A stretch of 51,294 bases of DNA from Candidatus Woesebacteria bacterium (lineage in GTDB: Bacteria; Patescibacteriota; Microgenomatia; UBA8517). Position numbers and translations under genes: made by a program. Shown piece by piece: positions 10,438-33,990 of the stretch (position 1 is its first letter; the number at the start of each line of letters is the position of its first letter). The stretch covers positions 183,920 to 235,213 of the forward strand of contig JAGUYM010000014.1 of NCBI GenBank assembly GCA_020061305.1. The letters are read 5' to 3'. A model generated the notes under the pieces. The model ran no database searches. It saw only the letters and a program-made list of their open reading frames with translations, and was not told the origin of the DNA.

Positions 10438-11753
10438 TGAATCAAAATAAAGTTAGAACTAGATTTGCACCCAGCCCAACAGGTTTTTTACATATTGGTG
10501 GTTTAAGAACTGCACTTTACGCATATCTCTTGGCAAAACATGAAGGGGGAGATTTTATACTTCGGATCGAAGACACTGATCAAAAAAGAGAAGTTGAAGG
10601 TGCAACTGAAGCGCTCCAAGAAACTTTAAAAAAATTTGGTTTAATTTGGGACGAATTTTACAAGCAATCAGAAAGACTTGAAAAATATAAAAGTGCCGCA
10701 GAAAAATTAGTTAGGGAAAGTTATGCTTTTTATTGCAATTGCAAACCTAAAAATGCAAAAGTAGAAGGGTTTTCTAAGGAATTGCGCGACCCATGTAGAG
10801 ATAAAAAGTTGACCAGTGGAGCAATAAAATTGAGGGTTCCAGATGGGCAGATTGTTAGATATCATGATTTTGTTCACAAGAAAGAAATATCTTGGAAAAC
10901 TGATGAAGTTTATGACGCCACACTTTTAAAATCAGATGGATTCCCAACTTACCATTTAGCTGTAGTAGTTGATGATACTGACATGAAGATAAGTCATATT
11001 ATAAGAGGACATGATTGGCTTCCCTCAACCCCAATACATCTTTTAGTTTTTGATTATTTGGTTAGTAAAAGGCCCGAGATTGGGCATTTAACAGATATTT
11101 TGTCAACTGAAACTGGCAAAAAACTTTCAAAAAGACGAGATTCTGTTTTTGTAGAACAATTCTTAGAAGAAGGTTATCTTTCAGAGGCACTTCTCAATTT
11201 TGTATTACTTTTAGGTTGGGCTCCCAAAAATAATAAAGAAATGTTTACTCTCACTGAGATGGTTAAAAGTTTTGACATAAACGGATTTCAGGACGCTAAT
11301 CCTAAGTTTTTTAGAGATAAACTTGATTGGTTTAATGGACAGTATATTCGTCAACTGAAAGTTGGCGACTTAAATTCTAAATTCCAAACTCTAAATTCTA
11401 AATTTAAAGCATTAAAGACAGAAACACAAATAGAAATTACAAAACTGGTTAAAGATAGAATTAGTAAGTTAACTGATATAAATACACTGGCCAAGTTTTT
11501 TTGGGAGACACCTGAAGTTGACAAGAGTCTTTTGGGCAATAATTATAAACTTCATCTTGCGAAAGCTATCGAGGCAATTGAAAACGATAAAGATTTGATG
11601 GAAGTTGTAAAGGAAAACAATTTTAAAACTGGAGACTTTTTTATGGATTTGAGAATTGCCATAACAGGCTCAAAGTTTACCCCTCCAATAAATGAATCAA
11701 TTGAAATTTTAGGAAAAGATGAAACATTAAAAAGACTTAAAAAAGTTATATGA
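10437..11753 (+). CDS. gltX: Glutamyl-tRNA synthetase
   Basis: RFAPSPTGFLHIGG, LRIEDTD, DGFPTYH, KLSKR. Confidence 0.95.
   Translation: MNQNKVRTRFAPSPTGFLHIGGLRTALYAYLLAKHEGGDFILRIEDTDQKREVEGATEALQETLKKFGLIWDEFYKQSERLEKYKSAAEKLVRESYAFYCNCKPKNAKVEGFSKELRDPCRDKKLTSGAIKLRVPDGQIVRYHDFVHKKEISWKTDEVYDATLLKSDGFPTYHLAVVVDDTDMKISHIIRGHDWLPSTPIHLLVFDYLVSKRPEIGHLTDILSTETGKKLSKRRDSVFVEQFLEEGYLSEALLNFVLLLGWAPKNNKEMFTLTEMVKSFDINGFQDANPKFFRDKLDWFNGQYIRQLKVGDLNSKFQTLNSKFKALKTETQIEITKLVKDRISKLTDINTLAKFFWETPEVDKSLLGNNYKLHLAKAIEAIENDKDLMEVVKENNFKTGDFFMDLRIAITGSKFTPPINESIEILGKDETLKRLKKVI
11370..11404 (+). repeat. 7-mer array inside gltX
   Basis: TTAAATT CTAAATT CCAAACT CTAAATT CTAAATT. Confidence 0.85.
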
Positions 11754-30513: not shown

Positions 30514-30587
30514 TGGCTGCGGAGCTTGGGGTTGAACCAAGATACCATCCTCCAGAGGGATGAGTCCTGCCATTAGACGACTCCGCA
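30514..30587 (-). tRNA. tRNA-Gln(CUG), CCA encoded
   Basis: Cloverleaf TGCGGAG/CTCCGCA, anticodon arm CATCC-CTCTGGA-GGATG, T arm CTTGG-TTCAACC-CCAAG; TGATATAAT upstream. Confidence 0.95.
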
Positions 30588-33883: not shown

Positions 33884-33916
33884 TTTATTTGATATAATAC
33901 TCCTATTGTTAAAAAA

Positions 33917-33990
33917 GGCCCCGTCGTCTAGTGATCTAGGACACTTGGTTCTCATCCAAGAGATCATGAGTTTGAATCTCATCGGGGTCA
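33917..33990 (+). tRNA. tRNA-Glu(CUC), CCA not encoded, A19/U56 variant
   Basis: GGCCCCG/CGGGGTC acceptor, CTTGG-TTCTCAT-CCAAG anticodon arm, ATGAG-TTTGAAT-CTCAT T arm; TGATATAAT at 33890. Confidence 0.9.

Follow-up and report, generated by a model that had tools for sequence, protein, structure and literature searches.

An A19:U56 base pair in place of G19:C56 in the elbow of a tRNA-Glu(CUC) gene from a Candidatus Woesebacteria bacterium

The tRNA-Glu(CUC) gene of a Candidatus Woesebacteria draft genome was found to carry an A:U pair at positions 19 and 56, where tRNAs usually have G:C, with Watson-Crick complementarity retained. This sequence state, its compensation and its recurrence on other assemblies were observed directly, as were the conserved context of the gene and the lack of any other tRNA-Glu(CUC) in the 97%-complete assembly. 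The gene is probably an expressed, functional, GAG-decoding tRNA-Glu(CUC), whose compensated A19:U56 pair would have the same shape as the usual one and would have been fixed by near-neutral GC-to-AT drift.

Sequence and Structure of the tRNA Gene

The gene lies in a stretch of 51,294 nucleotides, referred to here as the window, and its features and neighbors are collected in Table 1. The Rfam model RF00005 matched it over model positions 1–71 (the full model) with 58.2 bits (E = 4.4e-10; gathering score 29). Divided by structure, the tRNA reads GGCCCCG UC GUCU AGUGAUCUA GGAC A CUUGG UUCUCAU CCAAG AGAUC AUGAG UUUGAAU CUCAU CGGGGUC A, with AGUGAUCUA as the D-loop, UUUGAAU as the T-loop and a variable loop of 5 nt (AGAUC). 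The stems of 7, 4, 5 and 5 bp contain no mismatch, the wobbles being one G2:U71 and one U13:G22, and the core bases U8, A14, G18, U54, U55, G57 (R57), A58 and G53:C61 are standard. A G:C pair at 19:56 is a near-invariant feature of tRNAs and no condition for membership in the family. The gene ends with the discriminator base and does not encode CCA, as in many other tRNA genes of the genome. The original prediction, made from the letters of the window, had placed here a tRNA-Glu with A19, U56 and the T-loop TTTGAAT, and it was right in every detail according to the sequence, ARAGORN and Rfam. The accompanying suggestion that tRNA scanners might under-score such a gene was not borne out, since ARAGORN finds it and its Rfam score exceeds those of the tRNA-Gln of the window (51.1 bits) and the tRNA-Glu(UUC) of the same genome (57.2 bits).

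The anticodon fits the requirement for Glu (YUC). In E. coli, an identity element of tRNA-Glu is the augmented D-helix, which comprises U11:A24, U13:G22 and a missing nucleotide 47. Both U11:A24 and U13:G22 are present in the window tRNA and nucleotide 47 is not missing, the variable loop having 5 nt; the variable loops of the relatives' tRNA-Glu genes have either 4 or 5 nt, and the E. coli rule might not apply in this lineage. On sequence grounds, the gene is classed as a member of the tRNA family, and as tRNA-Glu by anticodon and orthology. Minimum free energy folding did not return the cloverleaf for the window tRNA or for either of two versions with G19:C56, and the tRNA on metagenome contig L205 folded into a cloverleaf whose D-stem is extended. 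In the cloverleaf form, the energy was −23.8 kcal/mol for the tRNAs of the window, L205 and L207, and −25.5 kcal/mol for that of L211. Because tertiary pairs lie outside the energy model, such folding is uninformative on the elbow.

Table 1. Positions of the tRNA-Glu(CUC) gene, its elbow bases and other features in the window.
Feature	Position in window	Strand	Basis or remark
GluRS-type class-Ic synthetase gene	about 10449..11330		PF00749; one gene found
tRNA-Gln(CUG)	30514..30587	-	second tRNA of the window
lon, 787 aa	31520..33883	+	upstream neighbor; Pfam Lon_C, LON_substr_bdg, AAA
Extended -10 promoter-like box, TGATATAAT	33890..33898	+	18 nt upstream of mature 5' end
tRNA-Glu(CUC)	33917..33990	+	ARAGORN; Rfam RF00005; 74 nt including discriminator A73 (33990)
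D-loop G18 and A19	33933..33934	+	A19 (33934) in place of near-invariant G19; alignment with relatives
Anticodon CUC	33951..33953	+	reads GAG; ARAGORN
T-loop U54, U55 and U56	33971..33973	+	U56 (33973) in place of C56; can pair with A19
greA, 170 aa	34188..34700	+	downstream neighbor; Pfam GreA_GreB_N, GreA_GreB

Genomic Context

The genome is a draft of 658,693 bp in 17 contigs, with a GC content of about 35%. ARAGORN reported 27 tRNAs in it, among which the anticodon CUC occurs once, in the tRNA-Glu of the window. A canonical copy elsewhere, which the original prediction had allowed for, was not found in the genome: the only other tRNA-Glu is a single canonical gene with the anticodon UUC, on contig C8. 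In the long open reading frames of the genome, GAG accounts for 25% of the Glu codons (2962/11825). The gene order lon, tRNA-Glu(CUC), greA, lysS is shared with many relatives, and the window gene is the positional ortholog of their canonical tRNA-Glu(CUC) genes.

The promoter-like box upstream of the gene was spotted by eye and by its conservation. Of 13 related contigs with otherwise diverged flanks, 11 have a TGnTAnAAT box at the equivalent site ahead of the orthologous tRNA. A two-hexamer promoter scan returned nothing directly upstream of the tRNA, and the box has no −35 match. An accessory or phage-derived (array) tRNA was considered and ruled out, as ARAGORN finds two tRNAs only in the 51 kb of the window and the flanking genes lon, greA and lysS stand in conserved order. 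The elbow of the other tRNA, tRNA-Gln(CUG), is canonical, with AAUGGCA in the D-loop and UUCAACC in the T-loop.

Compensatory Change at Positions 19 and 56

A tRNA-Glu was found in 28 of the 40 related genomes searched. All 28 genes have G19:C56, with GG in the D-loop (AGUGGUCUA and similar) and UUC in the T-loop (UUCRANU). Compared with them, the window tRNA has A for the second G of the D-loop GG and U for the C of the T-loop UUC, with no other change in these motifs. At 91% identity, the nearest reference ortholog (L002) shows seven differences from the window tRNA: the pair 7:66 is G-C in the window versus A-U, 49:65 is A-U versus G-C, 19:56 is A-U versus G-C, and loop base 59 also differs. 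All the paired differences, in three pairs, are thus compensated.

A metagenome scan with a pattern of the D-arm and anticodon arm, in which position 19 was left as N, returned 31 contigs. Two of these, L205 and L219, have A19 with U56 and a tRNA that differs from that of the window only by A57. They come from different groundwater samples (Hain-H43 for L205 and Hain-H41 for L219) and independent assemblies, and they share only about 71% identity with the window in the flanks, so that they represent different organisms and not the same assembly. The tRNAs of two further contigs, L207 and L227, have G19:C56 and are identical to those of L205 and L219 except at positions 19 and 56 (2/74). No half-changed form, either A19 with C56 or G19 with U56, was present among the 59 related tRNA-Glu genes (31 from the metagenomes and 28 from the genomes). 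According to our own arithmetic, the chance that two random substitutions land in one of some 25 paired positions and yield a Watson-Crick pair again is about 0.003. Additionally, U56 was found in 7 of the 378 unique tRNAs compared, and all seven have A19 and none the D-loop GG; those from outside the lineage are the array tRNAs and the phage T5 tRNA-Ile1 described below.

Taken comparatively, the two elbow changes are compensatory, beyond what chance would give, and are not to be read as error or decay; the pattern at 19:56 is that of a base pair selected for complementarity. The claim of compensation in the original prediction is upheld by the A19:U56 tRNAs of independent assemblies and by the lack of an uncompensated form among the 59 genes. 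Its further claim of a functional elbow appears likely to hold, given that the synteny and the promoter-like box are kept and that the paired changes relative to L002 are compensated.

Frequency and Recurrence

The A19:U56 pair is rare. It occurs in 1 of the 27 tRNAs of the window's genome and in none of the 129 tRNAs of three relatives (two full tRNA sets and that of 74% of a third genome). A pattern search for A19 in this type of tRNA-Glu D-arm, covering 401 genomes of the phylum, gave an A19:U56 tRNA in two, namely the window's genome and G239, a member of another family of the same class. The tRNA-Glu(CUC) of G239 (L351; 59.2 bits) has the D-loop AGUGACCUA and the T-loop UUUAAAU and is also located upstream of greA. 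The third match of this search (L353, in G140) was rejected as no tRNA. A scan of all reference genomes for A19 in the Glu-type D-arm was swamped by chance matches, 113 of the 120 listed being no tRNA, and it provides examples, not a frequency. As the searches were aimed at the tRNA-Glu D-arm, the impression of a repeated switch in one tRNA is biased.

In a tree of the Lon C-terminal region, the window was grouped with a same-genus relative bearing G19:C56 (support 100/99) and L219, with A19:U56, was grouped with L207, with G19:C56 (100/98), L205 standing apart. The AU test on this tree rejected monophyly for the three carriers, the window, L205 and L219 (p = 2.6e-9), and also for L205 with L219 (p = 0.005). 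The GreA tree points the same way, though a shared origin for the window and L205 was not rejected by it (p = 0.067). Judged by the Lon tree, the carriers of A19:U56 do not form one clade. Together with the case in the other family, this means that the switch recurs, in either direction, or that the tRNA gene was exchanged between close relatives.

The syntenic tRNA-Glu(CUC) of the same-genus genome G001 (L004:1501-1574) was found to be only 82% identical to that of the window. It has a variable loop of 4 nt, compared with 5 nt in the window, and a different T-stem, and more distant organisms carry a tRNA nearly identical to the window's. This divergence suggests a replacement or conversion of the tRNA gene at the locus.

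Elbow-Handling Machinery

The flat face of the 19:56 pair serves as a stacking surface for RNase P RNA, the L1 stalk and T-box stem I, which are not known to read its bases. Usually G19:C56, the pair is the outermost one of Watson-Crick type in the elbow, and R57 lies in the stack between it and G18:U55 (reviewed in PMC7912444). The RNase P RNA of the genome is encoded about 1.9 kb upstream of the window start (L079:1501-1792, corresponding to G000:C1:181745-182036, where G000 is the window's genome). It has a length of 292 nt and scores 92.5 bits, under the Rfam cut-off of 100; 11 nt stand in for a block of 79 model positions, from J11/12 to the 3' strand of P11, and another block, of 24 positions, is absent. 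These lost blocks are presumably the P12–P14 region and P18, respectively. The gene for ribosomal protein L1 is present (G000:C4:5499-5834), with an open frame of 184 aa that matches positions 81–198 only of the Pfam profile, and the protein may be shortened. A gene for the CCA-adding enzyme is present as well. No T-box was found in the genome. The elbow readers named in the original prediction therefore carry weight here only in part: RNase P and the L1 stalk are represented, by the RNase P RNA and L1 genes, but stack on the pair.

No gene was found in the genome for TruB_N, for a TrmA-type protein (PF05958) or for the GidA family (PF01134, with TrmFO and MnmG), and one SpoU-type methylase is present. 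Of the 40 relatives, 24 belong to the same family, and TruB_N was detected in 11 of these; in the 16 from four other families it was detected in none, so that 29 relatives gave no match to it. The idea that the loss of TruB frees the elbow was dropped as an explanation, as a small test showed no clean link and no case concerned 19:56: C55 or G55 occurred in 6 of 35 tRNAs of the TruB-positive genome G018 (74% of the genome), in 0 of 46 of the TruB-positive G019 and in 4 of 48 of the TruB-negative G009.

Other A19:U56 tRNAs and Published Precedents

Among the matches listed, A19:U56 was also found in a tRNA-Glu(UUC) of an array in a Hyphomonas MAG (L145) and in a tRNA-His and a tRNA-Arg of an array in a Cytophagales MAG (L154), accessory tRNA arrays being understood as defined in PMC4758250. 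These cases are extra copies, in groups of 7–8 tRNAs within at most 8 kb, whereas the window gene stands alone, as a core gene in conserved surroundings. The tRNA-Ile1(GAU) of phage T5 (AY543070.1, 28210-28286) has the D-loop AGCGAUCUA and the T-loop UUUAAAU and is a natural A19:U56 tRNA. In its GenBank record it is described as convertible into an amber suppressor, implying that the E. coli translation apparatus makes use of it. This tRNA resembles that of the window in having GA for GG, UUU for UUC and an equal 9-nt D-loop frame; it differs in being a phage accessory with another amino-acid identity and not the sole gene for its anticodon in a cellular genome.

The same base-pair swap has been engineered. 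A T. thermophilus pre-tRNA-Gly with G19A/C56U was cleaved by PRORP3 like the wild type, with kreact values of 1.78 and 1.67 per min, respectively (PMC4797305). In human mitochondrial tRNA-Ser(UGA), G19C abolished charging by the mitochondrial SerRS and A19:U56 restored it (PMC10412605). Since the engineered pair keeps or restores function, pairing and not base identity is needed by PRORP3 and by the mitochondrial SerRS. These mutants are laboratory constructs in other tRNAs, with enzymes absent from the organism's use.

The relatives' canonical tRNA-Glu(CUC) genes share with that of the window the anticodon, the D-stem GUCU/GGAC with U13:G22, the 9-nt D-loop frame and the locus, with at most 91% identity in the reference genomes; they have G19:C56 and the window gene A19:U56, and some of the metagenome twins differ at position 57 too. 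A literature search for surveys of natural A19:U56 or A18:G55 tRNAs and for elbows in the candidate phyla radiation returned mutagenesis papers only (PMC4797305 and PMC10412605). The closest named precedent for the variant is the phage T5 tRNA-Ile1(GAU), and the closest experimental ones are the two double-mutant studies. The A19:U56 pair is accordingly not new in kind; it is a rare variant of which natural and experimentally tested cases were already on record.

Origin and Meaning of the A19:U56 Pair

The A19:U56 pair would close the elbow in the shape of the usual G19:C56, so that RNase P RNA, the ribosome and the CCA-adding enzyme would find the same flat face to stack on; one hydrogen bond would be lost and stability slightly lowered. 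It would have arisen through two GC-to-AT transitions, the direction favored in this AT-rich, reduced genome, in a course of near-neutral compensatory evolution in which 19:56 was selected for complementarity and not for base identity. That the gene makes a working tRNA is supported by the complete cloverleaf, the synteny, the compensation, the covariation, the −10 box, its standing as sole CUC isoacceptor, the presence of the machinery genes and the precedents. Expression and charging of the tRNA and equivalence of the A:U and G:C pairs are inferred for this organism, and the precedents concern other tRNAs and enzymes (plant protein-only RNase P, mitochondrial SerRS and E. coli with T5). The finding would be a natural confirmation of what mutagenesis and phage T5 had shown before, namely that 19:56 is selected for Watson-Crick geometry over G:C identity. 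It is a clean example, with twins that differ only at 19 and 56, no half-changed form and a solitary core gene that is the only one found for its anticodon.

On its own, the finding matters little. The broader question, one that computation can answer, is how freely elbow contacts drift in reduced-genome bacteria and whether such drift follows the loss of the enzymes that read the elbow, and other elbow contacts in the lineage were judged worthier of follow-up than A19:U56 itself. It is conceivable, though unlikely, that the D-loop/T-loop tertiary code has loosened across the lineage, with A19:U56 as one sign of it, maybe in connection with pared-down elbow-handling parts. The observations that would speak for such a loosening, an improbable reading as it stands, are the independent recurrence in one tRNA and the coexistence of A18 with G55, of C55 and of A54:U58; the pared-down parts may be the RNase P RNA without its P12–P14 block and the absent TruB, TrmA and TrmFO. 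If true, these tRNAs would define the elbow geometries that translation really needs.

The recurrence of the switch in one tRNA could also mean selection instead of drift. An adaptive A:U elbow, weaker or differently read, might for instance suit cold groundwater, an altered release from the L1 stalk or a stripped-down elbow machinery. The non-monophyly of the carriers on the Lon tree, for all three and for L205 with L219, would fit such an origin, as would the further case in the other family (L351), the RNase P RNA without its 79-position block, the failure to find TruB, TrmA-type and GidA-family genes and the variation of other tertiary pairs in the family. Nevertheless, an adaptive origin is considered quite improbable. 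The pair is rare within this genome, in its three relatives and across the 401 genomes (for this D-arm type), both changes follow the AT mutation bias, and non-monophyly would also result if close relatives exchanged the tRNA gene. In addition, a shared origin for the window and L205 is not rejected when GreA is taken by itself, and the test for an association with the loss of TruB gave no clean link.

There is very little chance that the gene is decaying or dispensable. The canonical tRNA-Glu(UUC) on contig C8 might read GAG by wobble, in which case tRNA-Glu(CUC) could be dispensable. The tRNAs with odd elbows in this genome, Glu(CUC), Val(CAC) and Thr(CGU), all have C34, a doubtful Pro(GGG) with G34 coming in addition, which fits weaker selection on partly redundant tRNAs. 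Decay, however, would not compensate, and here all the paired changes are compensated without a mismatch; the Rfam score is as high as those of canonical tRNAs, A19:U56 is kept on the contigs with diverged flanks, and the promoter-like box and gene context are conserved. An assembly or sequencing artefact, conceivable in a draft of 17 contigs, can be dismissed for practical purposes, because errors are very unlikely to match at two interacting positions and L205 and L219, from different samples and different organisms, have the same A19 and U56.

Other Unusual Elbows and tRNAs

Further departures from the usual elbow were observed. In the tRNA-Val(CAC) of the window's genome (L032:201-272, + strand; G000:C13:7306-7377; Rfam 62.5 bits), with the D-loop AGUAGUA and the T-loop UGCAAAA, A18 faces G55 in place of G18 facing U55. 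The same combination was found in the tRNA-Gly(CCC) of G001 (L050), in the initiator-like tRNA-Met of G026 (L066) and G018 (L322), in the tRNA-Gln(CUG) of the related contig L228 and in tRNAs of Thermoleophilaceae, Labilithrix and Cytophagales MAGs. G55 is present in 18 of the 378 unique tRNAs, and all 18 have AG at positions 18–19. The literature search found no paper on the combination of A18 with G55.

The tRNA-Thr(CGU) of the window's genome (L033:202-274, - strand; G000:C13:18556-18628; 58 bits) has the T-loop AUCGUUG, in which the intraloop pair U54:A58 is swapped to A54:U58. The swap is common to G001 (L050, AUCGUAG), and other relatives have UUC.A. ARAGORN also called a tRNA-Pro(GGG) (L031:201-272, + strand; G000:C1:173692-173763) with the D-loop AAGAGUA and the T-loop UGCGACU; the call falls below the Rfam gathering score and could be either false or a degenerate tRNA. 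At position 55, where U is near-universal, C is common in this family (T-loop UCC...), with 4 of 48 tRNAs in G009 and 5 of 35 in G018 (L271-L350), and C55 also occurs in four metagenome versions of tRNA-Glu(CUC) (L202, L222, L223 and L228). The D-loop GG is kept in every C55 tRNA.

Dense tRNA arrays were seen in Labilithrix MAGs, with 29 tRNAs in L175:1-8000 and 21 in L098:1-8000, and T-loops of the G55 type (UGCGA..) occur six times in L175 and three times in L098. The arrays L154 and L145, both of which hold A19:U56 tRNAs, contain 7 and 8 tRNAs, respectively. Finally, a long-arm tRNA with the anticodon UUA, called 'tRNA-Stop' by ARAGORN, was found in G009 (L308:3929-4017, - strand; G009:C1:740229-740317; Rfam 59.1 bits), and a tRNA with the anticodon CUA, called 'Pyl' by ARAGORN, in G004 (L072:1224-1297, - strand); both may be suppressor-type tRNAs.
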